Shown: positions 1 to 18,815 of the stretch, one piece after another
Layout: each line of letters opens with the position of its first letter
Numbering within the stretch: position 1 is the first letter of the stretch
IMG/VR virus record: IMGVR_UViG_3300037419_001565
Length of the DNA stretch: 20,000 nt
DNA from: an uncultured virus (IMG/VR IMGVR_UViG_3300037419_001565)
Taxonomy: Duplodnaviria; Heunggongvirae; Uroviricota; Caudoviricetes
Reading direction: 5' to 3' (one strand)
Made by a program: the position numbers and the translations under genes
The notes under the pieces: generated by a model
Database searches by the model: none
The model's input: only the letters and a program-made list of their open reading frames with translations
What the model was told of the DNA's origin: nothing

Positions 1-1
1 T

Positions 2-2706: not shown

Positions 2707-2729
2707 ATTGAAAGGTTTTGGGGGGATGA
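2707..2729 (+). repeat. Dispersed motif copy 1
   Basis: ATTGAAAGG-TTTTG-GGGGGATGA. Confidence 0.8.
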
Positions 2730-2732
2730 AAA

Positions 2733-2951
2733 TTACTTTTTGAAAACGTCTGCGCTACGGTTCACGCCGTAGAAGAGGGTCATCAGAACCCCTTGCGCGC
2801 CAAGCGTCATCGGATCAGGCAAGGTGTGAGTAATTTTCAAAAAGCACGAGTCCCAGGCAAGGACCGCGCAGACGATGGGAAGCGTTATGCAGCGAGAAAA
2901 GCTGACTGTGCCATCGGCTTCAGAAAAGCAGGATTTTAGGAAGGTTTTCAT
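2733..2951 (-). CDS. Holin-like small membrane protein
   Basis: 72 aa, two hydrophobic segments, N-terminal SEADGTVSFSR and basic C-terminus (FKK), typical of two-TM phage holins. Confidence 0.6.
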   Translation of the reverse strand: MKTFLKSCFSEADGTVSFSRCITLPIVCAVLAWDSCFLKITHTLPDPMTLGAQGVLMTLFYGVNRSADVFKK

Positions 2952-2953
2952 TG

Positions 2954-2980
2954 TTGAGATTGAAAGGTTTTTGGGAGATG
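2954..2980 (+). repeat. Dispersed motif copy 2
   Basis: TTGAGATTGAAAGG-TTTTT-GGGAGATG. Confidence 0.92.
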
Positions 2981-2981
2981 T

Positions 2982-3290
2982 TTAGTTGAGCTTCTGTCCG
3001 TTCTTCTCGACTTTGAAATCGGAAATCAGATCCTCAACAGTAGTGAACTTTCCCGACTTGATGCCCTCCGCCCAGTGATGCACGAGGTCTTGAAGCATTT
3101 GCACCTTGACGTAACTTTGCGAACTGTCACTCGATGCAACCGCGTAGAGAGCGTTTACTTCCACACACGACGCGCATCCCATCACCTCAGGCATGACTGA
3201 ACCTCTTCCGGTGTAGCCGTGTAGCGGGCATGACGGGACGATGTAGATTCCCGTTGTGTCTTCTTGATGTTTGGGAGTTCTCTTGCTCAC
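2982..3290 (-). CDS. Hypothetical protein (CPLH...CASC, possible metal binding)
   Basis: 3' part of track ORF 2982..3446; likely GTG start at 3290 overlapping the upstream TGA (GTGA). Confidence 0.6.
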   Translation of the reverse strand: MSKRTPKHQEDTTGIYIVPSCPLHGYTGRGSVMPEVMGCASCVEVNALYAVASSDSSQSYVKVQMLQDLVHHWAEGIKSGKFTTVEDLISDFKVEKNGQKLN

Positions 3291-3565
3291 AGTTGAATCA
3301 CCTGCTTGAGAAAAAGGGCGAAGCGGAAACCTACAATCAACGCGAGTGGGACTTCCGCGTGAAAAATAAGAGAGAGGGCGAGCAAAGCAACACTCGGCCC
3401 TCCCACTCCAATGATTGCGCCGATCTCTATGCCGAACCGTCCGCATAGGAATCGGACAAAACGGTTCAACTCAACAGCGATACCGAACAATCGCATCTGA
3501 CGCGCAGAAAACCACGCATCAAACGCGCACAGCCCGACAAAGACTATTGAGAGGAAAGTCAGCAT
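3287..3565 (-). CDS. Small multi-pass membrane protein (DUF5658-like)
   Basis: ATG at 3565 coupled to upstream TAA; hydrophobic 92 aa with the D-AWFS...G-IAVELN pattern. Confidence 0.6.
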   Translation of the reverse strand: MLTFLSIVFVGLCAFDAWFSARQMRLFGIAVELNRFVRFLCGRFGIEIGAIIGVGGPSVALLALSLIFHAEVPLALIVGFRFALFLKQVIQL

Positions 3566-3999
3566 TAAGCCAAGATCCTCTTTAGGCGGATGGTCGCAAC
3601 ACAACCCGCGAGGTTCGTGAGAGTACCCGCAAGCTTGAGGCCCAGACGATCACCGCCACCGAGTTTCAGCGCAGCCGCGTCACCGCTCAAAACAGTGCCA
3701 CTGGCGACGGTATTTGCGCTGCCTGAGAGCGCCACAGTACCCGTCAGCATGGCCGTACCCGAACCAGGAGCCGTGGTGCCGGTCAACTTTTCAAGCTGAA
3801 GCGTGCCCGAGGTCGAGGCGGTTCCAAACACAACATCAATGCCCACGAGCTGATAGGCATCGCCTGCGGGACAGATGAACAGAGAGCGTGAAACGTCGGT
3901 TGCAGAAATGGTGATGTTTTTTAGGGAAACGGTCGGAATCAGGTTGCCATTGACTGATGCACCTGAACCGAGTGCCGGAGTTGAATTTTGAAAGAGCAT
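3565..3999 (-). CDS. Putative virion structural/head decoration-type protein
   Basis: 144 aa, Gly/Ala/Thr-rich beta-sandwich composition, late cluster next to the terminase. Confidence 0.6.
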   Translation of the reverse strand: MLFQNSTPALGSGASVNGNLIPTVSLKNITISATDVSRSLFICPAGDAYQLVGIDVVFGTASTSGTLQLEKLTGTTAPGSGTAMLTGTVALSGSANTVASGTVLSGDAAALKLGGGDRLGLKLAGTLTNLAGCVATIRLKRILA

Positions 4000-4012
4000 T
4001 GTGTTTTATTCC

Positions 4013-4210
4013 TTATTTTTTGGTTTTGATCTCCGAGCGGAGGATCAAATCCTCACCCGGCTTTGCCACTGAATGTTCACTGGCGAAGGTCTCTCCGCAA
4101 TCCACGCACATTCCCAGAATCACGGCGACTCCTGAAGCGGGAACTCCCACTACATCGCAGCAGTGGAATCTGTGCGGGCCTTTGCAGATGAATTTGTTTT
4201 GAGGTTTCAT
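4013..4210 (-). CDS. Hypothetical small Cys-rich protein
   Basis: 65 aa directly downstream of terL; CKGPH..HCC..CVDC. Confidence 0.6.
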   Translation of the reverse strand: MKPQNKFICKGPHRFHCCDVVGVPASGVAVILGMCVDCGETFASEHSVAKPGEDLILRSEIKTKK

Positions 4211-4212
4211 TG

Positions 4213-5736
4213 TTAAAAATACGAGTTATGTTGCGCGTTATGCTTCACTATTCCACCGCGAAATTCACGCGAGCGAAGGTGAGGCTTGCGTCCGTTCATG
4301 TAACCGAGAGCCATTCCGATGCACTGCAAAATATCGTCATTACCTTTAGCCGGTCGATCCTTACTCAACCCTTTTAGCCTGCCTCGTGCATGGAAGTCGT
4401 AGGTATATGTCTCGATCTCATCTACGAACTTGTGATTGTCATCGAAAGCAAAGAACTTCGGATGACGTGCATTTGAATCTGTGGTCGCGTTCAAATACTC
4501 GTTGAAGATGTCCCGACCATACTGCTCATCGAATTGCGGAAACCGACAGTTGATTCCTGACATCGCGTAGAGGTCTTTACAAGTGCGATGAGATTCCGCA
4601 TTCTTCTGATTTCCACCACGCGGGTCAATCAACCACAGGTCAATCACGTTTCCTGAATAGAGGGTGCTTAGGTTCTTCGCGTGTTCGCTGACGATTAAAT
4701 CTCGTTCCTTGTATTCCAAATCGAGATACGCATCTCCATTCGGAGCAAAAGCGATTGAGCAACTTCCTGTGGGTCCGGTAGGTGCAGGGTCAATCACATT
4801 CAGCCTGTACCACTCTTTCGGAATCGTGAAGCGTTTTACCAAGTGCGTGTTTCGATTGAACGCTTTGAAGACCAGCCCAGCTCGGGAGATAAACTCCCCG
4901 TAAATTCGCGCCCTACCTTCAGGATCACCATTAAGCCATCTCGCCTTCAGCCGCTCTTTCTCGTCCTCAGGAATATGCGGATTATCGAGAACCGAGAGCG
5001 AAACAAATCTCACATCCTTCCGACCCGCCTTCCATTCTTGATGGAGGTCAAACACCCACGGTTCGCGGGCGGCGGAGTTGATGTCGTTCAAAGGAGTGAG
5101 AGTGATGAGAATCTTTCCATTACAGTCAATCGTGCGCTGGAAGATTTCATCGTAGATGTCCTTGTTCGGCTCCTCATCAATCCACGCCCAATCGACCGAG
5201 GCCGCTTGAAACTTCTCACGTCCTGCTTCAGCCGACTTGCATTGGAGAATGCTTCCGTCAGCGTGAATGATCCGCGACTCATATTCGCTGACCTTCGCAA
5301 TCACGCTCTCATCGAGCTTAGGAATCAAGCCAGGATGGTTTCTTCCTGTCAGGAGTTTCTCCTGCAGGATCACATCCCTGACGATGTTGTAATCAAGTCC
5401 AGTCGCCCAAATGATCCGAGGCTTGTTTTCATCGGGAAGCGGGACATCCTTTACCAAGTCCCACGAGGGTTCATCTTTGAAATAACTTTTACCGAGAAAG
5501 GCGGCGGTGGTGAGGAAGGCACCTAATTCCGTTTTTCCGCTCCGGTTGCCTCCTAGGAGGCCGAAAACTTTTAACTCCGGTGTGAACTGCGCGATTGCTT
5601 CCTGCTGTGCAGGAGTAGCTTGCCAGTATCGAGCGAAATGCTCCTTCTTCCGCTTTTCTTCGAGAGCCAAAATCGCCGCCAACCGTTCATCGGCTGGGAG
5701 GCGGCTGAGTTGGCTGAGGGCTGCATCGAGGGACAC
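4213..5736 (-). CDS. terL: Phage terminase large subunit
   Basis: 507 aa. Walker A GGNRSGKT, Walker B WAWIDEEP, motif III TLTP, RNase H-like C-terminal nuclease (IDP..., GNDD). Confidence 0.95.
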   Translation of the reverse strand: MSLDAALSQLSRLPADERLAAILALEEKRKKEHFARYWQATPAQQEAIAQFTPELKVFGLLGGNRSGKTELGAFLTTAAFLGKSYFKDEPSWDLVKDVPLPDENKPRIIWATGLDYNIVRDVILQEKLLTGRNHPGLIPKLDESVIAKVSEYESRIIHADGSILQCKSAEAGREKFQAASVDWAWIDEEPNKDIYDEIFQRTIDCNGKILITLTPLNDINSAAREPWVFDLHQEWKAGRKDVRFVSLSVLDNPHIPEDEKERLKARWLNGDPEGRARIYGEFISRAGLVFKAFNRNTHLVKRFTIPKEWYRLNVIDPAPTGPTGSCSIAFAPNGDAYLDLEYKERDLIVSEHAKNLSTLYSGNVIDLWLIDPRGGNQKNAESHRTCKDLYAMSGINCRFPQFDEQYGRDIFNEYLNATTDSNARHPKFFAFDDNHKFVDEIETYTYDFHARGRLKGLSKDRPAKGNDDILQCIGMALGYMNGRKPHLRSREFRGGIVKHNAQHNSYF

Positions 5737-5755
5737 GGGAGGAGTGGGTGAGTTG

Positions 5756-5784
5756 TTGAGATTGAAAGGTTTTGAGGGAGATGA
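5756..5784 (+). repeat. Dispersed motif copy 3
   Basis: TTGAGATTGAAAGG-TTTTGA-GGGAGATGA. Confidence 0.92.
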
Positions 5785-5806
5785 AAAGGAGGTCTAGCCT
5801 CCCTTT
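5783..5806 (-). terminator. Possible intrinsic terminator/hairpin
   Basis: Minus strand GGAGG-CTAGA-CCTCC followed by TTTT, right after the stop of 5807..6109. Confidence 0.4.
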
Positions 5807-6109
5807 CTATTGAATTCCGAGTGCGACTTTGCTACGACCGAGATGACGATCAGCGGAGTAGAGAATTGAACGAAGTGAACGAAGACGTTCAATCACTGTA
5901 GGAATCGCCTGTCCTGATTGAGTACATGCAGGCTCCGGCTCAATTCCTTGCACGTTTTCAGCCACCAATCGTGCAGTGTTCTCGACCGAATTTGCAACAC
6001 CGAACAACTCACTAATGAGGGCTTCGATAGTTTCTTGTTTAGGGACGATGGCATTTTGAAGACCACTAAAATTGGTCGGAACCGCCCCATAATCTGCTTG
6101 CTTGTACAT
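5807..6109 (-). CDS. Hypothetical helical protein
   Basis: 100 aa, ATG with AGGAG RBS 9 nt upstream. Confidence 0.7.
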   Translation of the reverse strand: MYKQADYGAVPTNFSGLQNAIVPKQETIEALISELFGVANSVENTARLVAENVQGIEPEPACTQSGQAIPTVIERLRSLRSILYSADRHLGRSKVALGIQ

Positions 6110-6418
6110 CTAAATTCTCTCCTGCATCTGGATGATGCCGATTTGAAGCTGTATGAATGAGCAGGAGAAGATTGATTCCCGTCGCCAGAGGACTCCCGAT
6201 TCTCCACCTCTGGATGAAGCTTTTCACGGTGGCCTACCGTGTCGAATGCTTCTCAGCCCTGCGGTAGCTACGCCGCAAAACCTTAGCGTCTCAATTTGTG
6301 GATCGTTTTCTTTCCGCCACAACAGGAAACTGGCTGTTTAGACTCTCCGCCATGAGTAGGCTGCGCCAATACTCCCCAGCTATACGCTTCTTCGAGAGGC
6401 GTGGATGAGTGTGTTACT

Positions 6419-6454
6419 TAATTAGACTGCTGAAACCTGTCATCGACTTCACCT
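6419..6454 (-). promoter_or_regulatory. ECF-sigma-like late promoter, copy 1
   Basis: AGGTGAAGTC-N17-GTCTAATTA on the minus strand. Confidence 0.75.
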
Positions 6455-6467
6455 TTACCAAGGAAAA

Positions 6468-6623
6468 TTATTCATCATCCTCATCTTCCTCAATCGGCGT
6501 GATGAACCCAATCGCAGGGGGTCTTTCCTTAATCAGCTCACTCACCAGCTTTGCCAATCGGGAGTCGATCATGCGCGTGAGGGCAGCTTTCTGGCGGGGG
6601 TTGAAGGGAGGGCGTTTGGGCAC
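6468..6623 (-). CDS. Small hypothetical protein (51 aa, acidic tail)
   Basis: Manual translation from GTG: MPKRPPFNPRQKAALTRMIDSRLAKLVSELIKERPPAIGFITPIEEDEDDE. Confidence 0.55.
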   Translation of the reverse strand: MPKRPPFNPRQKAALTRMIDSRLAKLVSELIKERPPAIGFITPIEEDEDDE

Positions 6624-6629
6624 GGTAAG

Positions 6630-6656
6630 TGAGATGGAAAGGTTTTTAGGGAGATG
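6630..6656 (+). repeat. Dispersed motif copy 4
   Basis: TGAGATGGAAAGG-TTTTTA-GGGAGATG. Confidence 0.92.
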
Positions 6657-6836
6657 TTATTCAGCGGCGAATAGTTCGCAGAGGCAGTTGTTGATGCGCT
6701 TGTTGTGACGACCGGAAGGGCATCTATCCCCGATGGGGATCTCAGCCGCAGGCCCACCGAACTCCTGCACCTCGGGGCGCGAGGAGGACTTGACGATTGG
6801 ATAATTGGAGAAAGTGGAGTTTAAGAATTTCGTCAT
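6657..6836 (-). CDS. Small hypothetical protein (59 aa)
   Basis: Manual translation MTKFLNSTFSNYPIVKSSSRPEVQEFGGPAAEIPIGDRCPSGRHNKRINNCLCELFAAE; bracketed by inverted copies of the dispersed motif. Confidence 0.5.
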   Translation of the reverse strand: MTKFLNSTFSNYPIVKSSSRPEVQEFGGPAAEIPIGDRCPSGRHNKRINNCLCELFAAE

Positions 6837-6860
6837 TTGTCAACCCTAGGTATACAAGTC

Positions 6861-6888
6861 CATCTCCCTGTAAACCTTTCAATCTCAA
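6861..6888 (-). repeat. Dispersed motif copy 5
   Basis: Reverse complement TTGAGATTGAAAGG-TTTACA-GGGAGATG. Confidence 0.92.
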
Positions 6889-7331
6889 TTCGGCAGTTGG
6901 GTGAGATCCACCGCCTGCTCGCCCTCACCCTTCAACTTGCGCTTCATCGCGTCGATGTCCTTCGCGCTCAGGCCCGCAAACACGTTGATGGCTGATTCCG
7001 CCCCCACATGCCCTTCGGCCTTCAAAATATTCATCCCTACATTCGCGGCCTTCTCCCAGGCGTCGTCGTTCATAAGCCGGTCCATACAAATGACCATCTT
7101 CCCGATGGTGGTGTTCTTGTCCCGCTGGGGATCGGTCGCAATCTCCTTCGCAATCTGATTTCGGCGCTGGTAGAGGACTTGTTGGAAAGCCGGATTGAGG
7201 GAGAGTTTCTTAGCTTCTTCGTCTCGGAGTCCCAAGCCCAGCTCGACGGAAGCCTGCCAAACGGTCTGGTTGTTCCTGACCATCTGTTCGGCGAGGCGGG
7301 CGAAGTAGGGTTCTTCTTTGCGGGGAGCCAT
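6885..7331 (-). CDS. Probable terminase small subunit
   Basis: 148 aa helical protein with HTH-like N-terminus, between HNH and terL; call rests on size, position and composition. Confidence 0.55.
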   Translation of the reverse strand: MAPRKEEPYFARLAEQMVRNNQTVWQASVELGLGLRDEEAKKLSLNPAFQQVLYQRRNQIAKEIATDPQRDKNTTIGKMVICMDRLMNDDAWEKAANVGMNILKAEGHVGAESAINVFAGLSAKDIDAMKRKLKGEGEQAVDLTQLPN

Positions 7332-7337
7332 TCATTC

Positions 7338-7373
7338 TAATTAGACAGTTGAAACACTGATCCGACTTCACCT
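7338..7373 (-). promoter_or_regulatory. ECF-sigma-like late promoter, copy 2
   Basis: AGGTGAAGTC-N17-GTCTAATTA ending 6 nt before the ATG at 7331. Confidence 0.75.
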
Positions 7374-7856
7374 GTCCTGAACTATTTCTTTGGCTTTATG
7401 AGGACAGATACCCTTGTTGTGGTATTTCCCCAAGTTACAGTTCCAACAGAGGATCTGGAAACGCTCCGATGGATAGTGATTATCGACAATCCACTTTGCC
7501 AAACAGCTAATTTTCTCTTTTCTACGGTGCTCGGCTCCATCGTTGTAAACGTGGTCGATAGTGAGAAAACGAGAATCTTTGATTCCGCAACACCGACACC
7601 ATTTGCCGTAGTGGTTAAAGACCTTGTTTCTATAGCGTTGAGAGGCTTTGGTCGGATATTCGATGTAGTTCTCGACTGCGGTCTTCAGCACTTCCTCTTC
7701 ACGCTTCCGCTTTTCTTCGATCCGCCTGACACCTTCTTCAACTTGCTCCGGCGTGTATTCCACCTGGCCTCGGTTCGACCACCTCTCTTTGAACTCCAAA
7801 CACTTCTTTAAATGCTGTTCCGGCGTCTTTGCGCCAAATAAGTACTTACGTGCCAA
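7368..7856 (-). CDS. HNH endonuclease
   Basis: CRCC...LTIDHVYNDG...FQILCWNCNLGK...CPH; likely TTG start at 7856 behind an AGGAGG RBS (track start is 7907). Confidence 0.88.
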   Translation of the reverse strand: MARKYLFGAKTPEQHLKKCLEFKERWSNRGQVEYTPEQVEEGVRRIEEKRKREEEVLKTAVENYIEYPTKASQRYRNKVFNHYGKWCRCCGIKDSRFLTIDHVYNDGAEHRRKEKISCLAKWIVDNHYPSERFQILCWNCNLGKYHNKGICPHKAKEIVQDR

Positions 7857-7873
7857 TGATTTAACCCTCCTGC

Positions 7874-7909
7874 TAATTAGACAGCGTAAAAGGGAGCATG
7901 ACTTCACCT
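7874..7909 (-). promoter_or_regulatory. ECF-sigma-like late promoter, copy 3
   Basis: AGGTGAAGTC-N17-GTCTAATTA just upstream of the HNH RBS. Confidence 0.75.
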
Positions 7910-8042
7910 AATTAGAGGAAAAATACACACTAAAACCTTTGATATTAGCTATTTGCAAATATTTCAAAATTGGAATTTTTGTCGGAGCCAAGGAATCCAT
8001 TATCTTGAGCCGTTCTGATCGGGCGGAAAGCCGTAACCTACA

Positions 8043-8186
8043 GAAAACAAAAGACTTAGCTAACTTGTTGATTCTAAAGAAAGCGATGAAAACAAAGGAC
8101 TTAGAAGGTACAATAAGGTACTCTCCAAACCCTTTAGAATCAATGACTTAGTATTTAGAGCTATCTTGTTGAAAACAAAGGACTTA
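8043..8186. promoter_or_regulatory. Cluster of IHF-like sites in the AT-rich divergence region
   Basis: WATCAANNNNTTR matches at 8138-8150 (+) and 8061-8073 (-); GAAAACAAARGACTTA at 8043, 8088 and 8171. Confidence 0.6.
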
Positions 8187-8263
8187 CACGCGACACAATT
8201 TTTGAGCGGATCCTCTGGCCCGTCTCCCAACAAAGAAAATTAACTATCCGCATAACTTTTCTG

Positions 8264-8293
8264 TTGACAAGGCAACATAAGGGGGAATATAAG
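8264..8293 (+). promoter_or_regulatory. Sigma70-type early promoter
   Basis: TTGACA 8264-8269, 18 nt, TATAAG; upstream of the first rightward gene. Confidence 0.6.
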
Positions 8294-8335
8294 TATCTCA
8301 GTAAGTGAGCAAACGGTAATGAAAGGACACAGCCA

Positions 8336-8497
8336 ATGAACCCTCAGGAACTACAACACGAACGGATCATGGCTTATGCCATTGGTGACATGCGAGCTGA
8401 CTGTGAAGAGTGCGGCAAGCCGTGCCCAGTACAGCTCAGCCGTTGCGCTGATTGTGCGGAAACAAGTTTTTCGTGCTGTGCGGATACAAGTAATTAA
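8336..8497 (+). CDS. Small Cys-rich protein (53 aa)
   Basis: Manual translation MNPQELQHERIMAYAIGDMRADCEECGKPCPVQLSRCADCAETSFSCCADTSN; GAAAGGA RBS. Confidence 0.6.
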   Translation: MNPQELQHERIMAYAIGDMRADCEECGKPCPVQLSRCADCAETSFSCCADTSN

Positions 8498-8556
8498 CCA
8501 GACCGAAACGCCCTTGGGCGTCCGCACGTTAAGCGTGCGCTGATGAGGTCAAAGAA

Positions 8557-8751
8557 ATGAAATGTCAAGAATGCAAAACACGGCGCACGAGACGCGGTGA
8601 GCGTATTTGTGATGGATGTGCGTCGAAGGGGTTGGATGTGACGTTGTTGAAGCTGTACGGCAAAGCGCTCAAAGCGTTTCCTAGTAGCCCCAAACAACAA
8701 GAGATTAACGGCGAGATCACAGCGCGACTAGCAGAGTTGGGGCGTGCATAA
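8557..8751 (+). CDS. Small zinc-finger-like protein
   Basis: CQEC...CDGC; GAGG RBS. Confidence 0.65.
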   Translation: MKCQECKTRRTRRGERICDGCASKGLDVTLLKLYGKALKAFPSSPKQQEINGEITARLAELGRA

Positions 8752-8940
8752 ATGACAGTTTCCCTGCTTTACATCACAGACAAAACAGGCAATCGCTTCT
8801 GGAAAACAACCGTCACCACTGATTACGCGCAAGGCGAACGGAACAACTTGCAGCAACGTCTTACGCAAATCAAGAATGGTAATCCCGCGTTTGCGTTCAT
8901 TGATTCAGAATCAGCGCAAATCGTAGAAGAAACTAACTAG
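8752..8940 (+). CDS. Hypothetical protein
   Basis: 62 aa, abuts the previous stop. Confidence 0.6.
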   Translation: MTVSLLYITDKTGNRFWKTTVTTDYAQGERNNLQQRLTQIKNGNPAFAFIDSESAQIVEETN

Positions 8941-9023
8941 CAGCCCACCAGCTGTAAACTACAACCCACCGCTTAGGCGGTCCAATAAATCGAGCGGGCA
9001 GCTCGTTAAACACGGAGACAAAT

Positions 9024-9752
9024 ATGAGCTATAACGGATGGTCAAATCGCGCAACCTGGAATGTTTCACTCTGGCTTAGCAACGATGAACCCCTCTACCA
9101 CGAATTACAGTCTGTGATTCGTCGCGCCTCAGACGTTGAAGATCTTGCAGAGAAAATCGAGGAACTGGCCAAAGCAGTATGGCCGAACGGCAAGACTCCC
9201 GATGGTGACAAGATCGCTGATGCCGATTTCGCGGAAATTGCCGAATCTGAGTGGCGCGACTCTGATCGCGCCGGGGAGGATGCCGACAAAGATGATCCCA
9301 GCGAAGCCACACGTCAAAACATTAAGACTTTTGCCGAGTCCAACGGATTACTCTTTACCGCGCATCGCGTGAACGAGCGTCCCGATGGATTAGGCGCAAG
9401 CATGACGCGGCATTTCCGCTGCTCGATCATCAACCAAAACAACGGCAAGGCAATGAGCCTGTATTTCTCGCAAGGCTCGGCACATGTGAAAGCACCAACG
9501 CTAGAGGATGTGTTGGATTGCCTCGCGTCTGATGCGGCTAGCATTGAAAATTCAAAACCCTCAGACGAACATCCAAGAGCCATTTACAGCGACACGGCTT
9601 TTGAGAATTGGGCTACTGAATTTGGCTATGATCCCGACAGTCGCAAAGCTGAGAAAATGTATAAGGCCACTCGACGACAAGCCGAACAACTCAAACGCAC
9701 CATCGGACCAGAGGCTTACGATCAACTGCTCTGGCATACCGAGCGGCTTTAA
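9024..9752 (+). CDS. Conserved phage hypothetical protein, apparent two-domain fusion
   Basis: N-terminal YNGWSNRATWNVSLWLSNDE and C-terminal PTLEDVLDCLASDA...FENWATEFGYDPDSRKA motifs recalled from phage early proteins; GGAG RBS. Confidence 0.8.
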   Translation: MSYNGWSNRATWNVSLWLSNDEPLYHELQSVIRRASDVEDLAEKIEELAKAVWPNGKTPDGDKIADADFAEIAESEWRDSDRAGEDADKDDPSEATRQNIKTFAESNGLLFTAHRVNERPDGLGASMTRHFRCSIINQNNGKAMSLYFSQGSAHVKAPTLEDVLDCLASDAASIENSKPSDEHPRAIYSDTAFENWATEFGYDPDSRKAEKMYKATRRQAEQLKRTIGPEAYDQLLWHTERL

Positions 9753-9775
9753 CATCTCCCATAAAACCTTTCAAT
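9753..9775 (-). repeat. Dispersed motif copy 6
   Basis: Reverse complement ATTGAAAGG-TTTTAT-GGGAGATG. Confidence 0.92.
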
Positions 9776-9776
9776 T

Positions 9777-9805
9777 AAAGCCCCAGCTCCCCCGGCTGGG
9801 GTTTT
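9777..9805 (+). terminator. Rho-independent terminator
   Basis: CCCCAGC/GCTGGGG stem, 7-nt loop, TTTT tail. Confidence 0.75.
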
Positions 9806-9843
9806 GCGCTTACGCGCACAAGTGAAAATAAAAGGGAGGATAT

Positions 9844-9877
9844 GTGAAGTCGATTAGGTGTTTGGAGAGTCTAACTA
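9844..9877 (+). promoter_or_regulatory. ECF-sigma-like promoter, copy 4
   Basis: GTGAAGTC-N17-GTCTAACTA upstream of the RHH gene at 9915. Confidence 0.7.
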
Positions 9878-9914
9878 TATGTAGGACTAAAATTCCATAT
9901 AGCAGGCTCTATAA

Positions 9915-10223
9915 ATGAAACCCAACAAATCACTATTACGTGCATTCACCATTCCCCCTGAAATCAGCAATGCCCTAGATCAAATGGCCGCAAGCGACGG
10001 GCAAAACAAATCCGCCTGGATCACACACCTGATTAAACAGGAACAGGACCGGCGCACCGAAGATCCTAAAGACATCGGCCAATACACATTCACACTCCCA
10101 TATCTCGCCATCCAAGACCTAGACACCCTGGTTCGGGCGTACAAATCTGACCGATCTACGATGGTGCAAATAGCCATCATGGAAGAGATGAACCGTTTCC
10201 TGCTCAAAAAGCAAGGTCGCTGA
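9915..10223 (+). CDS. Tandem ribbon-helix-helix (CopG/Arc-like) DNA-binding protein
   Basis: Two RHH-like units: RAFTIPPEISNALDQMAASDGQNKSAWITHLI and YTFTLPYLAIQDLDTLVRAYKSDRSTMVQIAI. Confidence 0.75.
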   Translation: MKPNKSLLRAFTIPPEISNALDQMAASDGQNKSAWITHLIKQEQDRRTEDPKDIGQYTFTLPYLAIQDLDTLVRAYKSDRSTMVQIAIMEEMNRFLLKKQGR

Positions 10224-10370
10224 GGTCTCTTAATCTCTCTTAAACCCCCTCTTCTTTTCTAGAAAAAAGAACAAAAATTGACGATATATAAGAGAAGCGA
10301 GGGAGTGTTACGTGGAATCAACAACTTAGAGACATAAAACAAGGAAAATAACTTTAAGCTTTACGTACAA

Positions 10371-10446
10371 TTTCGGTAGATTCTACCTACAATCTACCGA
10401 AAACATACCGAAATTCTACCGAAATCTTCGGTAGATTTTACCGAAA
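10371..10446. repeat. Array of six (TC)TACCGAA(A) boxes, direct and inverted
   Basis: Boxes at 10371-10380 (-), 10393-10402, 10406-10413, 10415-10424, 10427-10435 (-), 10439-10446. Confidence 0.9.
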
Positions 10447-10450
10447 CGAA

Positions 10451-10939
10451 ATGGCTCAAAAAGAAAAACTAACCCTTAATCTCACTTCCGAAACCGTCAA
10501 CCAACTACGCCAGCTCGCGGAGATGGATCAAAAATCTATGTCCGGCTGGATCGTGGATGTGATTGTGCGAGAAGCACGCGAACGCAACGTGCAGGCTATT
10601 AAGCTTGACCTGAAAAAGAGCAAGATTGACAAAGCCAACAATCCGAACCCAGCCGGTCGCCAGGGTATGACCAAACAGGATAAGTGGGGCAAAGAACGCG
10701 CAGAGAATATCCACCAATGGCTCAAAGACCAACATGAGATGTGGGGGAAAGATAATCCCGAACTATACGAACGCGATTACAAGCCTTACGGCGAGTGGGT
10801 GGATCTCATGGAGCGCAAGCGCAACTACCGCGCCATTTTCGACTTCTGGGAGACACGACCGCTCCAAAAAGAGAACCGGCCCAAGTCGCTAGCCTTTGTC
10901 CTTCAACAACTTAGCGAACTTGGACAAAATCCCTCTTAA
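10451..10939 (+). CDS. Protein with N-terminal ribbon-helix-helix domain
   Basis: KLTLNLTSETVNQLRQLAEMDQKSMSGWIVDVIVRE fits the RHH pattern; C-terminal domain unknown. Confidence 0.75.
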   Translation: MAQKEKLTLNLTSETVNQLRQLAEMDQKSMSGWIVDVIVREARERNVQAIKLDLKKSKIDKANNPNPAGRQGMTKQDKWGKERAENIHQWLKDQHEMWGKDNPELYERDYKPYGEWVDLMERKRNYRAIFDFWETRPLQKENRPKSLAFVLQQLSELGQNPS

Positions 10940-11320: not shown

Positions 11321-11334
11321 AGGAGCAAACTCAC

Positions 11335-11475
11335 ATGTCCAATCTCTTCGCAACCCTCTACATCTACCGCTGCGGCACCACTTTGAAGGGATCGCAGAGG
11401 GTGAATCATTATCGTTCGCGCCTGAGTGGGCAGCATTGGGCTGTGAGGGAACTTGGCGGTTTCTGTCTGATTTGA
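11335..11475 (+). CDS. Small hypothetical protein (46 aa)
   Basis: AAGGAG RBS; MSNLFATLYIYRCGTTLKGSQRVNHYRSRLSGQHWAVRELGGFCLI; its stop lies inside the dispersed motif. Confidence 0.55.
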   Translation: MSNLFATLYIYRCGTTLKGSQRVNHYRSRLSGQHWAVRELGGFCLI

Positions 11476-11500
11476 GATTGAAAGGTTTTATGGGAGATGA
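11472..11500 (+). repeat. Dispersed motif copy 7
   Basis: TTGAGATTGAAAGG-TTTTAT-GGGAGATGA. Confidence 0.92.
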
Positions 11501-11706
11501 ATATGCCACACGAAAAATACGAGCCTGACTTCAGCGGCGAAGATTGCTTCATCAACTATTACGAATGCCCGCGCTGCCACGAAAAATGGACGGACACTTG
11601 GAGCTGCCAAGCAGATGACGACTGCCCAAAGTGTGGCTTCCGGCACGTTTCGCCGTATGACTCTGAGGACATTCTTAACCGCGAGGATCAGGAGAACGAA
11701 TCTTAA
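11497..11706 (+). CDS. Small zinc-ribbon protein
   Basis: YYECPRCHEKWTDTWSCQADDDCPKCG; start may be ATG 11503 using the GGGAG of the motif as RBS. Confidence 0.75.
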   Translation: MNMPHEKYEPDFSGEDCFINYYECPRCHEKWTDTWSCQADDDCPKCGFRHVSPYDSEDILNREDQENES

Positions 11707-11709
11707 CCA

Positions 11710-11733
11710 TCATCTCCCCGAAAAACCTTTCAG
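11710..11733 (-). repeat. Dispersed motif copy 8
   Basis: Reverse complement CTGAAAGG-TTTTTCG-GGGAGATGA. Confidence 0.9.
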
Positions 11734-11751
11734 CCACCGCACGGGCCACGA

Positions 11752-12528: not shown

Positions 12529-12770
12529 CCCACCCAGACCTCACCTTCACCGGCCTAGCCGGTCTCTACACCCTCCACGCCAAAACCGCCGAGGGAGCAC
12601 AGTGGATCAACGATCACGTCCCGTTCGAACCCTGGCAAGGGGATATTCGCAAGGGCGTGGCGATTGAGGGGAGTTATCGCGCCCAGGAGATCGCGGACGC
12701 CGCTATCGCGGATAAGCTCACGGTTGAGGTGAATGGGAGGGTTTATCAGGGAGCGTTAGCTAGCAGATAA
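12525..12770 (+). CDS. Hypothetical phage protein
   Basis: 81 aa, GGAGG RBS, ATGA coupling. Confidence 0.7.
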   Translation: MTHPDLTFTGLAGLYTLHAKTAEGAQWINDHVPFEPWQGDIRKGVAIEGSYRAQEIADAAIADKLTVEVNGRVYQGALASR

Positions 12771-12800
12771 TCATCTCCCTCAAAAACCTTTCCATCTCAA
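12771..12800 (-). repeat. Dispersed motif copy 9
   Basis: Reverse complement TTGAGATGGAAAGG-TTTTTGA-GGGAGATGA. Confidence 0.92.
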
Positions 12801-12827
12801 TTTCTCACGTATAACAGGGAAAATAAG

Positions 12828-12856
12828 TTGACAAGCACGAGGGAAGATGCGAGACT
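12828..12856 (+). promoter_or_regulatory. Possible sigma70-type promoter
   Basis: TTGACA-17 nt-GAGACT with TG extended -10. Confidence 0.45.
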
Positions 12857-12941
12857 TAAAGAGTGATCTAAAGCACGGTCTGTGCAAACGCGAAGAGTGG
12901 GAGAGCTAGTCGGCTTACGGCGAGGAGGAGAGGAGCAGTAG

Positions 12942-13142
12942 ATGGCATTCACTGTCGAAGTAAACGGAAAGACTTTCATCGTTAATACGAACGTGACGCA
13001 CGAAGGCAAGGAATACAGATACGAGTTCAACGGTTTGAGTTGCAATCGCCTGGACTGGATTGCTGAACGAATCGCTGACCAGGTTCATGACGACATCCTC
13101 AAAAAACTTGTGCTGGCAGAAGCAGACGAGGTGCAGGCATGA
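12942..13142 (+). CDS. Hypothetical protein
   Basis: 66 aa, AGGAG RBS. Confidence 0.65.
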   Translation: MAFTVEVNGKTFIVNTNVTHEGKEYRYEFNGLSCNRLDWIAERIADQVHDDILKKLVLAEADEVQA

Positions 13143-13348
13143 GCGCAGGAAAGCACACGGCAACACCGGCCAGGAGCAAGTCGTTTATTCGTCGTTTGCG
13201 CGAGCGAGGTGCTAAGGACGCGCAAGCTGGCAAGCCCATTGATGCGTTTTACAAGCTGCCTTATGACCGGCATTACGAGTGGATGCGTGCCGCTTACGAA
13301 GTCGGATGGCGTGACGCAATCGCCGCCGCAAAGGAGCAGACCCGATGA
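13139..13348 (+). CDS. Ribosome modulation factor (Rmf/CrpP)-like small protein
   Basis: RERGAKDAQAGKP...PY...AAYEVGWRDA resembles the RMF pattern RGY.AG..G....PY....WL.GWREA. Confidence 0.45.
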   Translation: MSAGKHTATPARSKSFIRRLRERGAKDAQAGKPIDAFYKLPYDRHYEWMRAAYEVGWRDAIAAAKEQTR

Positions 13349-13608
13349 GCGCCAGCCGCAAGCCACGCAAGTTGTCGGAAGTTGAGGCGCAGAACATGTG
13401 CGACGAGTTCAACTCGAAACATCCCGAAGGGACGCAGGTTCGCTTTTGGTCGGGAGTCCGCGAAGGAGACGGCCAAATCGGAACCGTGAGCTATGGAGCG
13501 CACCCTATCGGGAACATCCCCGGCGTGTATGTCGAGGATCGCGGATTCATCGCCATGACACACATTGAAGTTTTGCCGCAGGAGGCCGCCGATGAGCGCC
13601 GACGCTAA
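13345..13608 (+). CDS. Hypothetical protein (possible SH3-like barrel)
   Basis: 87 aa, FNSKHPEGTQVRF...GVYVE; ATGA coupling. Confidence 0.65.
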   Translation: MSASRKPRKLSEVEAQNMCDEFNSKHPEGTQVRFWSGVREGDGQIGTVSYGAHPIGNIPGVYVEDRGFIAMTHIEVLPQEAADERRR

Positions 13609-14116
13609 GCCCACCCCCGTAGCCCCAACGTTGATGGCTCCAGGACACACGCCGGAAGGATTGGGAATCGCCGCAGCGCGGCGACTGTACTCCCTAGGCA
13701 AGCTCCTCCACGGCACAGGCCGTGATGACGAAATCGTAGCCGAAGCAGCAGACGTGATTGACGCCATCGCCGCCCTCGGTGAGCCGCCAGCCGCGCCAGC
13801 GCAGCTAGAGCGTGACAAGTTCGGCGAGTTGCCCTATGCGGAAGTTCTCGACCGGCTTACTCCGCTGATTCATAACCAGGAGTTTGCGAAGGCCGCCGAC
13901 ATTCTGCGCGAGGTCGCAAACTCAAAGCTCTACAAATCGAACTGGTTGTGTGGTTGTTATGTGTGTGGCAAGGCAGCACAACCGAAGGAGCGGCATCATG
14001 TGTTGTTCTGTGAAGAGCACTTCAGAGAAATCACAAATCGCTTCCGTCTAGACTTCACCGCCGCCCCCTCAGGGACAGGAGAGGCCGCAGCGCCCGCCCA
14101 GGAGGAGACCCGATGA
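13592..14116 (+). CDS. Hypothetical protein with C-terminal zinc-finger-like motif
   Basis: ATG 13592 after GGAGG; CYVCG...FCEEH. Confidence 0.65.
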   Translation: MSADAKPTPVAPTLMAPGHTPEGLGIAAARRLYSLGKLLHGTGRDDEIVAEAADVIDAIAALGEPPAAPAQLERDKFGELPYAEVLDRLTPLIHNQEFAKAADILREVANSKLYKSNWLCGCYVCGKAAQPKERHHVLFCEEHFREITNRFRLDFTAAPSGTGEAAAPAQEETR

Positions 14117-15304: not shown

Positions 15305-15424
15305 ATGGCAGCACGGATTTGGTTGTTTTTGAGAATTGTCTACAGAACTGACTGGACTGGCGGTCGGCTATCGCCGAGCGATGCGTGGGAGATTTCGGCC
15401 ATCGTTCACGGAGTGCGCCCATGA
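15305..15424 (+). CDS. Small hypothetical protein (39 aa)
   Basis: AGGAG RBS; MAARIWLFLRIVYRTDWTGGRLSPSDAWEISAIVHGVRP; ATGA coupling to the next gene. Confidence 0.55.
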   Translation: MAARIWLFLRIVYRTDWTGGRLSPSDAWEISAIVHGVRP

Positions 15425-15627
15425 CCACCCTAGCGACGATCCTCGACAGGACGAGGGATCTACTTCTCGGCTGCACACATTCAAATGTTTCCTGGCCTCA
15501 AGGCAGGGGAGCCGATTGTCACATCAACTGCAACCAATGCGGGAAGCGTTTTCGTTATGACTGGCGGACGATGAGGACCATAGATCATCTCCCCAAAAAC
15601 CTTTCAAGTATGCAGGAATGGCAATAG
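15421..15627 (+). CDS. Small Cys/His zinc-binding protein
   Basis: LLGCTH..SWP....CNQCGKRFRYDWRTM; GGAG RBS. Confidence 0.65.
   Translation: MTTLATILDRTRDLLLGCTHSNVSWPQGRGADCHINCNQCGKRFRYDWRTMRTIDHLPKNLSSMQEWQ
15585..15607 (-). repeat. Dispersed motif copy 10
   Basis: Reverse complement TTGAAAGG-TTTTTG-GGGAGATGA; inside the 3' end of CDS 15421..15627. Confidence 0.9.
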
Positions 15628-16564: not shown

Positions 16565-16815
16565 GCGATTTCGGCGAAGGAAAATTCGTAATTGGTCGCA
16601 AAGACCATATGTGCATCGGATGCATGGGCAAGATTGCCAAAGGGGAACGCCACTATCACTACACCGGAGTCTGGGAAGGCGATTGGCAGAACTGGCGGCT
16701 TCATACGAGGTGCGAAGAAATCTCCCGCACGATGGACTTGTCCGATGGATTCGTAGGTGGATTTCTAAACGATGAACTTACGGAACAACAGAAGGCCGCC
16801 GGGAGCCGCGCATGA
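16561..16815 (+). CDS. Zinc-finger-like phage protein
   Basis: RKDHMCIGCMGKIAKGE...HTRC. Confidence 0.7.
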   Translation: MSDFGEGKFVIGRKDHMCIGCMGKIAKGERHYHYTGVWEGDWQNWRLHTRCEEISRTMDLSDGFVGGFLNDELTEQQKAAGSRA

Positions 16816-17591
16816 CCGCTAACCGATGGGCGTCGAAAGCCGCCGATGAAATCTTTTCCCTGTTTAAGAACGCTAGCTATTTCTCGACTCGGAACGCCGA
16901 GCATCGCGCACAGATGTTGGAAGGTTGGGCGCAAATTATCGAGCGAAACGCGGCGGACGCAGACAAGCAGGAGCAGCCGAGCGAACTGCCAGCCGATGGT
17001 TGTATCTGTCGCGGAAATTGGAGAGAAATCGTCGCCGAAACCGAAACCATGATTGGTAAAGAATTTGTGAATGAACACGATGAGCGGTTCAGGCTGTTCG
17101 GAATTGTCCATGCCGATGACGACTATTACTACGGAATGCACGGCGAATCTGGGATGCGGCTGCTGTCGTGCGTCGGAAACATTGAAAGTTTTGGTTATCG
17201 TCTCGTCGCCCCATCCGTCGTGGAGGCCGCGCCCGCCATTGAAGTTATTGAAGCGGCAATGGATGAGAGTGATGACTTGGCTGAGGAACTTCGTCACCTC
17301 AAGGCGCTGATGGACAAGCTGGTAAGGGCTGTTCGCTTTGAGGAATCAAAGGGAACAATTTCGCTGTGCCAAGACGCTATTTGGCTGTTGGATGACTGCG
17401 AAAAGGCCGCCGCCCCGCAATCGGCGCAGCCGACGCAGCAGGTCGCACACTTCTGTCACAAGTGCGGAGGCGAGATTACCCGCTACCCATCGCCACCTAA
17501 GTGCAGCAAGTGCGGTCACGTTGCAAGCATCAAGGAAATTCTGGCCGCCGAGCGGAGCACGGGCAGCCCAGCAGCGGAGGAGAGGAAATGA
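16812..17591 (+). CDS. Mosaic hypothetical protein with C-terminal zinc ribbon
   Basis: 259 aa; CICRGNWR...DDDYYY and CHKCG...CSKCG. Confidence 0.75.
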   Translation: MTANRWASKAADEIFSLFKNASYFSTRNAEHRAQMLEGWAQIIERNAADADKQEQPSELPADGCICRGNWREIVAETETMIGKEFVNEHDERFRLFGIVHADDDYYYGMHGESGMRLLSCVGNIESFGYRLVAPSVVEAAPAIEVIEAAMDESDDLAEELRHLKALMDKLVRAVRFEESKGTISLCQDAIWLLDDCEKAAAPQSAQPTQQVAHFCHKCGGEITRYPSPPKCSKCGHVASIKEILAAERSTGSPAAEERK

Positions 17592-17773
17592 GCATTCGCG
17601 ATTGGCTTTTCTGTCACTTTCACAACATCTGCTACAGGCATCGAGTGGACAAGATTCTAACCATGAGCGTCGGAGGGAATCTCTACTTCTATTGCCCAAC
17701 GTGCAGAGAAGAACGCCAGAAGAAGTATGCAGAGCGTCGGAAATGTTTGGGAGTAAATCATGCCGAAATGTGA
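17588..17773 (+). CDS. Small Cys/His-rich protein
   Basis: ATGA overlap; CHFHNICYRH...CPTC. Confidence 0.6.
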   Translation: MSIRDWLFCHFHNICYRHRVDKILTMSVGGNLYFYCPTCREERQKKYAERRKCLGVNHAEM

Positions 17774-17948
17774 TTGCGGAAAGTACGACCTATTGAGCAT
17801 CTTCAGCGAGAAGCAAGACGGGAACATCGTGCATAGATGGCTCGCTGGATGCTCGTCGCAGCGAAGCGAGACGACGGAAGACCAAGACTCGGAACACTCA
17901 GCAGGAGAGCGCGGGCGCACCGAGGAGGGCAGCAATGGACGCAAGTAA
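17760..17948 (+). CDS. Small hypothetical protein
   Basis: GGAG RBS; CDCG...H...C. Confidence 0.55.
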   Translation: MPKCDCGKYDLLSIFSEKQDGNIVHRWLAGCSSQRSETTEDQDSEHSAGERGRTEEGSNGRK

Positions 17949-18330
17949 GCGCGAAGAAAACAGGCCGGGAAGTCCTAGTCACGCCGAGAAATATCTTCGC
18001 GGGTATCTAGGCGGGTCAATCAAGCTGCGCGACGACCAGATTCTGCCGCTCACCCTCTGCTTGGTGCAGTATGGCGCGACATGCGCGGTTGCCGCTTACA
18101 AAGATTCCGAGCGTGTGATGGCCGAGAAGGTGGACGAAATCATTTCCTTTCGCCGCGACCCGAACAATGGTGCAGGACTGTGGGCGGTCTTCGTGAACGA
18201 ACACCCGATTCATCATTTCCGCGCCGATCAAAACGTCACCGCCTACATGGAGAAACTGGCGGCGAACATGAAGGCAAAGCTGAAAATCTACGACGAAGAG
18301 GAGCGGGAGGGCAGCAATGGACGCGACTAA
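17935..18330 (+). CDS. Hypothetical protein
   Basis: 131 aa, GGAGG RBS; flanked by 19-bp direct repeats. Confidence 0.7.
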   Translation: MDASKREENRPGSPSHAEKYLRGYLGGSIKLRDDQILPLTLCLVQYGATCAVAAYKDSERVMAEKVDEIISFRRDPNNGAGLWAVFVNEHPIHHFRADQNVTAYMEKLAANMKAKLKIYDEEEREGSNGRD

Positions 18331-18724
18331 GACGCAGCAGCCGGAAATGACGATTGAACGCGCACAGGAGTTAATCGAGAGCGACCTGTGGCCTAGACAA
18401 GCGGAACTTCTGCTCAGGGCATCGAGGGCTGCGCTGCGCTCGCTATCCCGTGTACGGGCAGAGAGGGATTTCCAAGCAGAAGAAGCACAACGTGCAAATG
18501 ATGCCCTTGAATACCACCAGCGCATGGAAGCCGCTTACAAAGACTCGTGGCAACAAGCATCCACCCGCGTTGAGGCTGCTGAATCGGCGTTAGCCGAAGC
18601 AAATCGCCGCCTTGCGGAAATCGAAATCATTTCAGGATCGGCGACATGCGACGGCATGGATTGGGCCGTGAAGCGAATCTACGAGTTGGCGGGCGGGGCA
18701 GGCGAGGGCGGAGATCCTAAATGA
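18317..18724 (+). CDS. Coiled-coil hypothetical protein
   Basis: 135 aa, Ala/Glu/Arg-rich helical. Confidence 0.7.
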   Translation: MDATKTQQPEMTIERAQELIESDLWPRQAELLLRASRAALRSLSRVRAERDFQAEEAQRANDALEYHQRMEAAYKDSWQQASTRVEAAESALAEANRRLAEIEIISGSATCDGMDWAVKRIYELAGGAGEGGDPK

Positions 18725-18792
18725 AACGCCGTTGGTTCACGATCCATGAACTCGACGTGGTTGAGAGAGCAGCAGCCGAAGTAATCCCATAA
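18721..18792 (+). CDS. Possible 23-aa peptide
   Basis: ATGA overlap, GGAG RBS; MKRRWFTIHELDVVERAAAEVIP. Confidence 0.35.
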   Translation: MKRRWFTIHELDVVERAAAEVIP

Positions 18793-18815
18793 CTGAAAGG
18801 TTTTGAGGGAGATGA
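18793..18815 (+). repeat. Dispersed motif copy 11
   Basis: CTGAAAGG-TTTTGA-GGGAGATGA. Confidence 0.92.

Follow-up and report, generated by a model that had tools for sequence, protein, structure and literature searches.

A 20,000-nt stretch of DNA from an uncultured phage of soil and rhizosphere (IMG/VR record IMGVR_UViG_3300037419_001565, Caudoviricetes), the whole of which is called the window here, carries eleven copies of an asymmetric, non-palindromic motif of 28 bp with the consensus TTGAGATK-GAAAGGTTT-N-GGGAGATG. The element exists, and selection acts on its nucleotide sequence. We tentatively favor the view that the motif is the recognition site of one sequence-specific, double-stranded DNA-binding protein, arrayed at junctions inside operons, and we weigh this view against readings in which the motif acts in RNA, marks sites of other DNA transactions or has no function for the phage.

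Form, number and distribution of the motif

Window positions 1-13040 match the reverse complement of IMG/VR record G001 (28,165 bp) at 100% identity, and the two were joined by script into a working contig of 35,125 bp (window position = contig position minus 15,125), to which the counts below refer unless the window is named. Genes in the window (52.4% G+C) run leftward from ~7907 and rightward from 8336. The left arm holds the gene for the large terminase (TerL, T4-type; 4213..5736), and the G001-side extension adds genes for an SU10-type portal and adaptor, the capsid, a SleB-like hydrolase and tail-fibre-like proteins and, on the opposite strand, a methyltransferase. CheckV rates G001 as 43% complete and the protein cluster of the SleB-like gene also occurs on a 64,141-bp contig, so that the genome of this podophage would be roughly 64 kb, with 35.1 kb covered here and ~29 kb beyond it. 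A matching stretch occurs in 11 soil or rhizosphere DNA runs, and no RNA run is among the listed runs that carry it.

On one strand the motif presents three purine words, GAGAT, GAAAG and GAGAT, at offsets of about 0, 6 and 20 bp. Ten exact matches to GAAAGGTTT-N1-6-GGGAGATG lie in the window (+ strand at 2962, 5764, 6637, 11480 and 18795; - strand at 6861, 9753, 11711, 12772 and 15586), compared with a mean of 0 in 200 dinucleotide shuffles, and an eleventh copy at 2710-2728 (GAAAGGTTTTGGGGGGATG) has the variant right box GGGGGGATG. A scan tolerating up to two mismatches in TGAAAGGTTT and one in GGGAGATG returned 21 copies in the 35,125 bp, where 50 shuffles gave 0.06, and 11 in the window. 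A preliminary description of the window had listed eleven copies of one cis-acting, non-palindromic element spanning both arms; all eleven were found, within 1-6 nt of where it had placed them, and the tolerant scan adds none to its list.

The two boxes are nearly invariant and the spacer sequence is variable, the commonest being TGA (6 copies), with length variation mostly in T and G runs. GAAAGG and GATG stand at a distance of 10 in 13 of the 21 copies, 9 in four, 11 in three and 8 in one, which puts the box spacing at 10±1 in 20 copies; the variable spacer described earlier, given there as 5-7 nt, is thus roughly right. Eleven copies are of a long form that has GAGAT twice, 19-21 bp or about two helical turns apart, with the left box [TG]TGAGAT[TG], in line with the repeated GAGAT already remarked on. 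The other ten are of a short form, and three of these carry the common variant TAACTGAAAGG. Copies occur on average every ~1.7 kb, on both strands, with gaps of 34 bp to 4.9 kb. Single copies have no self-complementarity, which agrees with the earlier judgment that the motif is neither a hairpin terminator nor a classical repetitive extragenic palindromic (REP) element.

A public contig extends 683 nt past window position 20000. Because it cross-matches copies 2954, 5756 and 9753, it suggests one or two further copies just past that end, possibly as an abutting inverted doublet. Cross-matching to copies beyond the window end is the best explanation of two contig joints (2984 to 20000, on opposite strands, and 5784 to 9753). 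Apart from such cross-matching, the contigs of four sequencing runs show no starts, ends or rearrangement at copies.

The motif appears to be private to this phage lineage. Records G001 and G002, which are 99.98% identical to one another, are 99.98-100% identical to the phage. TerL relatives in IMG/VR and the JGI metagenomes share 32-52% identity with it (the best match in a cultured phage reaches 27.5%), and queries with the portal and a ClpB-like protein found no closer kin. The motif is absent from TerL relatives at 47-52% identity, from the whole records of five relatives and from 35 of 35 relatives' loci, and no comparable over-represented word was found in the relatives examined (the whole of record G003 and six loci). 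Matches to the core pattern in IMG/VR comprise 37 stretches, 19 of them in G001 or G002 and 18 singletons in 18 contigs; the long form has no match in metagenome contigs.

In 185,579 species genomes the core pattern matches at least 121 stretches, which, among the matches listed, are scattered singles except in one Clostridia metagenome-assembled genome; by our own arithmetic, scattered matches are roughly to be expected by chance when 17 bases are fixed and 596 Gb are searched. The Clostridia matches (L106, L107, L132, L141 and L102) were rejected as a relative of the motif: they fall in a conserved 5' region, ~100 nt long, that belongs to a repeated gene family and has 37-43% G+C and different flanks, and are a coincidence. 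The common host chromosomal repeat that the preliminary description had named as the case against its proposal is therefore not seen in the genome collections, where the matches listed are scattered singles. Mimicry of a CRISPR repeat, to which we take the word ATTGAAAG in the motif to bear a likeness, was also dropped, since conservation runs the wrong way and no array-like locus with several matches is among the genome matches listed.

Three G-rich copies are embedded far inside genes, namely those for the portal, the SleB-like hydrolase and a DUF5658 membrane protein. The portal copy encodes VERSLGEM and aligns without gaps to LEKSYGAF of the G003 portal; the SleB-like copy encodes TERFMGD and aligns without gaps to seven homologues of 40-52% identity. 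Given the peptides and the phage's own codon usage, the probabilities of the codon sets are 2e-5 (portal), 2e-4 (SleB-like) and 1e-4 (DUF5658). Because these copies are free of indels and use improbable codons, selection must act on nucleotides away from gene ends as well. An origin by insertion was rejected on the gapless alignments with the seven SleB homologues and the G003 portal, and a 10-residue surplus relative to the SleB of the PDB is an alignment artefact, as the seven closer homologues align through the motif. The motif word is thus written over codons that were already there, which selection on nucleotides accounts for and insertion does not.

The intragenic copies also bear on whether the motif is a selfish miniature repeat of the REP or REPIN (REP doublet forming hairpins) type, functionless for the phage, which we regard as very unlikely. 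Most copies are indeed extragenic, adjacent to stops and in both orientations, and there is a tight inverted doublet (3507/3541), a second inferred past the window end and sub-families that share spacers. Replacement of homologous codons without a change in length is impossible by insertion, however; the unit lacks self-complementarity, conservation is far stronger in the boxes than in the spacer, and it is equally good in single copies and in doublets. Neither a recombinase nor a transposase was seen among the genes of the 35 kb scanned with Pfam and PHROGs, and no copy family was found in any other genome among the genomes searched (there, among the matches listed), IMG/VR and the metagenome contigs.

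Junctions, orientation and pairing

By a hand-curated gene list that makes 89% of the contig coding, 17 of the 21 cores are at least half non-coding, compared with a mean of 2.3 and a maximum of 9 in 20,000 random trials. The list ended one gene at 15585, whereas its ORF runs to 15627 through copy 15586, and the corrected count of 16 still bears out the enrichment at gene ends claimed from the window. Gaps of at least 15 nt number 33, and 17 of them hold a copy. Most motif-bearing gaps barely exceed the motif in length; only 3 copies are in gaps of at least 150 nt, and the larger gaps hold other regulatory sequences. The upstream stop touches the element in either orientation, lying 0-4 nt before CATCTCCC, or formed by the TGA in the left box or the TAA in TAACTG, and the next start is -1 to ~100 nt away. 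The individual placements reported earlier were recovered: copies 6861 and 11472 provide the TGA that stops the upstream gene, a stop codon is 0-4 nt away from seven more, a hairpin separates copy 5756 from a stop 23 nt before it, and copy 15586 is within the last 14 codons of ORF 15421..15627.

On the mRNA, 13 copies read in the C-rich direction (CATCTCCC..AAACCTTTC) and 8 in the G-rich direction; on the DNA, 11 are on the + and 10 on the - strand. The window alone gives the 8:3 split counted previously. The structural and packaging arm holds 15 of the 21 copies. With C-rich to G-rich ratios of 9:6 in the left arm and 4:2 in the right, there is no significant link of orientation to transcription.

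A reader of double-stranded DNA is favored because it explains the mixed orientation without a second mechanism, and because it also covers the conserved boxes at fixed spacing over a free spacer, the two-turn distance between the GAGAT words and the copies overprinted in genes; stoperators offer a precedent. On this reading, the copies would stand at junctions inside operons, and be overprinted into three genes, to let a single factor act along both arms. Most plausibly this factor would be a roadblock, insulator or silencer that affects, in either orientation of its site, transcription running across the junctions.

Several observations weigh against this interpretation. The box spacing, which varies by ±1 and once by -2, is loose for a rigid two-part DNA site. 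No copy in the 35 kb lies on a recognizable promoter, a TTGACA-type word or the divergent region 7857-8335. No binder was identified there either; the sole clear DNA-binding proteins found, the ribbon-helix-helix (RHH) proteins of genes 9915 and 10451, have other repeats next to their genes. Copies are mostly in tiny gaps between co-transcribed genes and not in the large non-coding gaps, which fits a role in RNA or translation at least equally well. Starts follow long C-rich copies at -1, 0, 2, 3 and 5 nt, and at 19 nt in the case of the TerL GTG and of a TTG; all seven of these starts lack a Shine-Dalgarno (SD) sequence. Read in the other direction, the G-rich form resembles a stop-SD-ATG cassette.

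The main rival, possible although doubtful, is that the motif instead works at the RNA level, as an intercistronic junction or translation element with two faces. The C-rich face would be a G-free, unstructured leader between a stop and the next start that takes the place of the SD, either as a platform for re-initiation or standby or by recruiting an RNA-binding activator. The G-rich face would combine a stop (TGA/TAA), SD-like words (GAAAGG, GGGAG) and an ATG, and opposite copies could pair, coupling translation. Such a role suits the 16-17 of 21 cores that lie between genes, almost all of them co-directional, and a motif that makes tiny gaps inside operons instead of using existing non-coding DNA. 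The SD-less starts that follow the seven long C-rich copies at -1 to 19 nt include those of TerL and the adaptor, two start calls backed by homology reaching the N-terminus, while the short C-rich copies 2702 and 15586 are instead followed by SD-bearing spacers. C-rich copies are G-free on the mRNA, except for one G in copy 11711, and eight are predicted to be unpaired, with pairing probabilities of 0.04-0.22 vs 0.33-0.54 in their flanks.

The G-rich face offers parallel evidence for an RNA element. Two real-looking ORFs, of 59 and 69 aa, begin at the motif ATG, which in the portal copy keeps to the frame of that gene and elsewhere starts mini-ORFs of 5-8 codons, one of which (MKNPS) has a TGA that overlaps the ATG of a 638-aa gene. 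For 5 of the 8 G-rich copies, the nearest C-rich copy is no more than 240 nt away. By a crude score, an SD-like word stands 4-12 nt upstream of 15 of 19 gene calls in the right (early) arm and of 9 of 20 in the left (late) arm. On the other hand, the two orientations require two mechanisms, the mRNA carries the 'wrong' strand of 8 of the 21 copies, and the three deep intragenic copies are left unexplained. An unstructured leader needs no exact conservation, the spacers of paired copies show no compensatory changes, and other SD-less late genes (a 621-aa gene and the capsid gene) carry no copy.

We also note that several late starts are preceded by C-rich runs resembling an anti-SD, for example CTCCTCCC before the TerL GTG. 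Rfam covariance models gave no match at the gathering score in the window, where no tRNA or tmRNA gene was found, and the 316-nt leader at 6105-6420 is not unusual in structure (z = -0.44).

A more ambitious proposal, and a rather unlikely one, is that the motif is a two-faced translation signal through which the phage directs a switch from SD-dependent early to SD-independent late translation. The C-rich leader may then be used by SD-poor late structural and packaging genes (those for TerL, the adaptor and a tail-fibre-like protein), the G-rich face may act as a stop-SD-AUG cassette, and pairing between opposite copies may couple neighbors. Judged by eye, the two boxes of the G-rich reading are presumably complementary to adjacent parts of the standard 16S 3' tail.

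Six pairs of copies are less than 300 bp apart, and five of them are inverted. Convergent pairs surround single small ORFs (6657..6836, 11497..11706 and one 59-aa ORF in G001), and small ORFs of 59-72 aa are bracketed by two copies in four places (2702/2954, 6629/6861, 11472/11711 and, on the G001 side, 10116/10322); the bracketed proteins are mutually dissimilar. A divergent doublet with 6 nt between its members follows the adaptor gene (G001-side 3507/3541) and is the sole tight doublet among the 21 copies. The spacers of paired copies are neither common to both members nor co-varying, which argues against both selection for an RNA duplex and recent duplication. An RNA duplex between paired copies is weakened as a candidate for the same reason.

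The bracketed ORFs invite a reading of the copies as recombination junctions at which cassettes are swapped, inserted or deleted, by homologous exchange in the manner of promoter early stem-loop (PeSL) elements or by a site-specific enzyme; we consider this unlikely. Copies do occur where genes are not translationally coupled, that is, at module borders, and the three copies with the common TAACTGAAAGG variant and the six with the spacer TGA hint at common descent. The variable spacer, however, limits identity to blocks no longer than 17 and 8 bp; such lengths are short for homologous exchange and leave the cassette exchange raised in the preliminary description disfavored. Three of the four bracketing pairs are inverted and would give inversion, not excision. 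The dyad symmetry expected of tyrosine or serine recombinase sites is missing from the motif, the genes scanned in the 35 kb include no recombinase, the intragenic copies are free of indels, and the contigs of the four runs show no rearrangement at copies.

Likewise unlikely is a role in some other DNA transaction, with the copies acting as sites of single-strand nicks, as packaging or condensation contacts or as points of replication priming or pausing. Sites of this kind could be orientation-independent, dispersed about every 1.7 kb on both strands and overprinted in long genes, as seen here, and nick sites with a fixed consensus are described for T5-, phiKMV- and tf-like phages in the available part of PMC3517423. 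HNH-type endonuclease genes are present at 7368..7907 and at L019:5716-6246. Against this, the nick sites described there are one-stranded, compared with 11 + and 10 - copies here, and the gaps between copies are irregular.

Individual copies, neighboring sequences and gene content

The copies in the window are set out in Table 1 together with a second repeated sequence, GTGAAGTC-N18-TCTAATTA, whose four copies are all on the late-gene strand upstream of gene starts.

Table 1. Motif copies in the window and copies of GTGAAGTC-N18-TCTAATTA; motif copies are named in the text by their first position
Feature	Position	Strand	Form and reading on mRNA	Surroundings
Copy 1	2702..2728	+	Short form, right box GGGGGGATG; - strand mRNA reads the C-rich form	4 nt after stop of ORF 2733..2951; then SD-bearing 32-nt spacer before ATG 2669; direct pair with copy 2 around 72-aa ORF (2733..2951)
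Copy 2	2954..2980	+	Long form, C-rich	1 nt after stop 2982-2984; 2 nt from its end to ATG 2951, whose gene lacks an SD
Copy 3	5756..5783	+	Long form, C-rich	After hairpin 5788-5802, stop at 5807; TerL GTG start 19 nt downstream, without SD
Copy 4	6629..6656	+	Long form (GTGAGATG), C-rich	Abuts stop of ORF 6657..6836; ends 5 nt before GTG 6623; convergent pair with copy 5 around 59-aa ORF 6657..6836
Copy 5	6861..6888	-	Long form, G-rich	TGA of copy is stop of gene 6885..7331; its ATG opens a 5-codon ORF only; ORF 6657..6836 starts 24 nt later
Copy 6	9753..9780	-	Short form, C-rich	Abuts stop of gene 9024..9752; directly followed by hairpin 9781-9801 and T run
Copy 7	11472..11499	+	Long form, G-rich	TGA of copy is stop of ORF 11335..11475; its ATG in frame with 69-aa zinc-ribbon-like ORF ending 11706
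Copy 8	11711..11739	-	Short form, C-rich	4 nt after stop at 11706; ATG 11752 at 12 nt downstream, without SD; convergent pair with copy 7
Copy 9	12772..12800	-	Long form, C-rich	1 nt after stop at 12770, operon end; 27 nt before TTGACA word 12828-12833
Copy 10	15586..15613	-	Short form, C-rich	Within last 14 codons (DHLPKNLSS) of ORF 15421..15627
Copy 11	18787..18814	+	Short form (TAACTGAAAGG), G-rich	TAA 18790-18792 ends 23-codon ORF; degenerate complementary stretch and TTGACA word 18835-18840 downstream
GTGAAGTC-N18-TCTAATTA	7874-7907	-
GTGAAGTC-N18-TCTAATTA	7338-7371	-
GTGAAGTC-N18-TCTAATTA	6419-6452	-
GTGAAGTC-N18-TCTAATTA	6050-6083 (working contig, G001 side)

Two copies have degenerate complementary stretches nearby that are predicted to form local hairpins with them: 12722-12752, in the 3' end of the upstream coding sequence, for copy 12772, and 18824-18855 for copy 18787. 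These stretches may be decayed partner copies or chance matches.

A phage-specific or alternative sigma factor is likely to use GTGAAGTC-N18-TCTAATTA as a late promoter. Six nt separate the copy at 7338-7371 from ATG 7331, and its mRNA may therefore be nearly leaderless. Low-copy promoters for phage-encoded sigma factors that resemble it are described for phiEco32-like phages in the accessible portion of PMC4331800. Perfect TTGACA words stand at the heads of rightward gene blocks (8264-8269, 10966-10971, 12828-12833 and 18835-18840), each 17-22 nt before a weak TA-rich hexamer; these were picked out by eye, are unlisted by a sigma-70 consensus scan (7 sites vs 12.5 expected, and so uninformative) and are candidate early promoters of host type.

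T7-type promoters are conserved words of ~20-28 bp at gene ends. The motif resembles them in word size and site, and copies 12772 and 18787 stand at operon ends, yet we find it hardly credible that it itself terminates transcription, or starts it as a promoter for a phage-specific polymerase or sigma factor. Eight of the 21 copies would fire or stop antisense, and GTGAAGTC-N18-TCTAATTA fits the promoter role better. As to termination, no hairpin forms within a single copy, and ordinary hairpins (5788-5802 and 9781-9801) stand beside copies 5756 and 9753. The weak terminator-like match at 11748-11731 (5 pairs) takes its T-run from copy 11711, and none is formed by a single copy alone.

The preliminary description had put forward the two RHH proteins as binders of the motif, but they are poor candidates. 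Directly upstream of the RHH-like gene 10451..10939 (window 10355-10446) is an array of TCTACCGAAA words with 11- and 22-bp phasing and inverted partners, probably the autoregulatory operator of that gene, and a CTATATG/CATATAG inverted repeat, read by eye, precedes the CopG-like (RHH) gene 9915..10223. From their position, these repeats would be the natural operators of the two RHH proteins, and they are unlike the motif.

Most scanned ORFs of the window have no Pfam match. Between 12942 and 18792 there are ~20 small ORFs with overlapping stop and start codons and strong SDs, many of them Cys-rich and zinc-ribbon-like; no Pfam family was found for any ORF of this run, which has motif copies only at 15586 and, at its right end, 18787. 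The structural arm includes, on the opposite strand at L019:248-898 (-), corresponding to working-contig 13268-13918 (+), a gene of the methyltransferase family (phrog_8156, E 3.6e-25) with a motif copy ~290 nt upstream. The HNH-type endonuclease gene at L019:5716-6246 (+), between the capsid gene and the next gene, is a 176-aa ORF of atypical codon usage (score -4.3) whose PHROG match bears the annotation HNH endonuclease. Its sequence LVGLWEGEGTF has what we take to be a LAGLIDADG-like look, and the ORF is probably a free-standing homing endonuclease.

Comparison with known dispersed words

For uncultured phages whose proteins fall into no known families, dispersed private DNA words offer one of the few ways into regulation, and this motif is unusually informative because it is long, sharply defined, selected even inside genes and orientation-free. 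A binder, if found, would give a new pair of site and regulator and a possible orthogonal genetic part. If the RNA reading were true, the motif would be a new signal for SD-independent initiation, directly testable on the TerL and adaptor genes; if neither were true, it would be one more phage repeat of its class.

REP elements, bacterial interspersed mosaic elements (BIME) and REPINs are imperfect palindromes, and their mobile unit is an inverted doublet accompanied by a RAYT transposase in the genome. Like them, the motif is extragenic just after stops, in both orientations and occasionally in an inverted doublet. Unlike them, its unit is non-palindromic, it resides in a phage, it forms one tight doublet among 21 copies and it is overprinted in frame without insertion; no RAYT-type transposase was found among the genes scanned in the 35 kb.

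The localized nick sites of T5-, phiKMV- and tf-like phages, as presented in the available part of PMC3517423, are likewise a short fixed word repeated (~4-14 times there, along podophage or siphophage genomes) with unknown function, but they lie on one strand, whereas the motif uses both equally. The PeSL elements of T4-type phages, which are made up of a strong sigma-70 promoter and a stem-loop terminator, recombine and mark where indels and replacements between close relatives start and stop (available part of PMC2839356), share with the motif the form of repeated intergenic cassettes bracketing small non-essential ORFs. The motif differs from what is described there in having no promoter match or stem-loop and in its very short blocks of identity.

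The start-associated sequences (SAS) and extended SAS (ESAS) of cluster K mycobacteriophages are, in the accessible portion of PMC3203893, placed 3-7 bp upstream of starts, in one orientation and in the non-structural half only, with a role in translation suggested but unproven. Measured against that account, the motif is alike in being a repeated asymmetric word with an SD-like core at stop/start junctions, sometimes with the upstream stop inside the repeat, and in being absent from other phages, as SAS are from their host as well. It departs from SAS in that 13 copies are in the complementary orientation, that both arms carry it, with 15 of 21 copies in the structural and packaging arm, and that its ATG starts a substantial separate ORF (59 and 69 aa) in 2 of 8 G-rich copies.

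The closest parallel would be the stoperators of cluster A mycobacteriophages, bound by L5 gp71 and the TipsytheTRex repressor, which the available part of PMC9283540 describes as dispersed asymmetric sites in short intergenic spaces. Common to both are an asymmetric word in more than 20 copies over both arms, placement in short intergenic spaces touching stops and starts, and restriction to one lineage. Stoperators are 13 bp, compared with a bipartite motif of 18-28 bp, and in the same source their orientation is strikingly correlated with the direction of transcription and its reversal abolishes function. The motif, with its 13:8 split, does not follow that rule, so the analogy to stoperators drawn in the preliminary description fails on the defining point. 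In cluster A phages the site also overlaps the early lytic promoter, as an operator; no copy of the motif was found on a promoter in the 35 kb. No immunity repressor of the monomeric two-domain type (helix-turn-helix plus stoperator domain) was found by Pfam or PHROGs among the genes scanned, and nothing marks this phage as temperate. By analogy, the motif would work most like a stoperator or operator network, yet one that breaks the orientation rule. Being orientation-free, it fits neither of the two models that have been studied best, stoperators and start-associated sequences.

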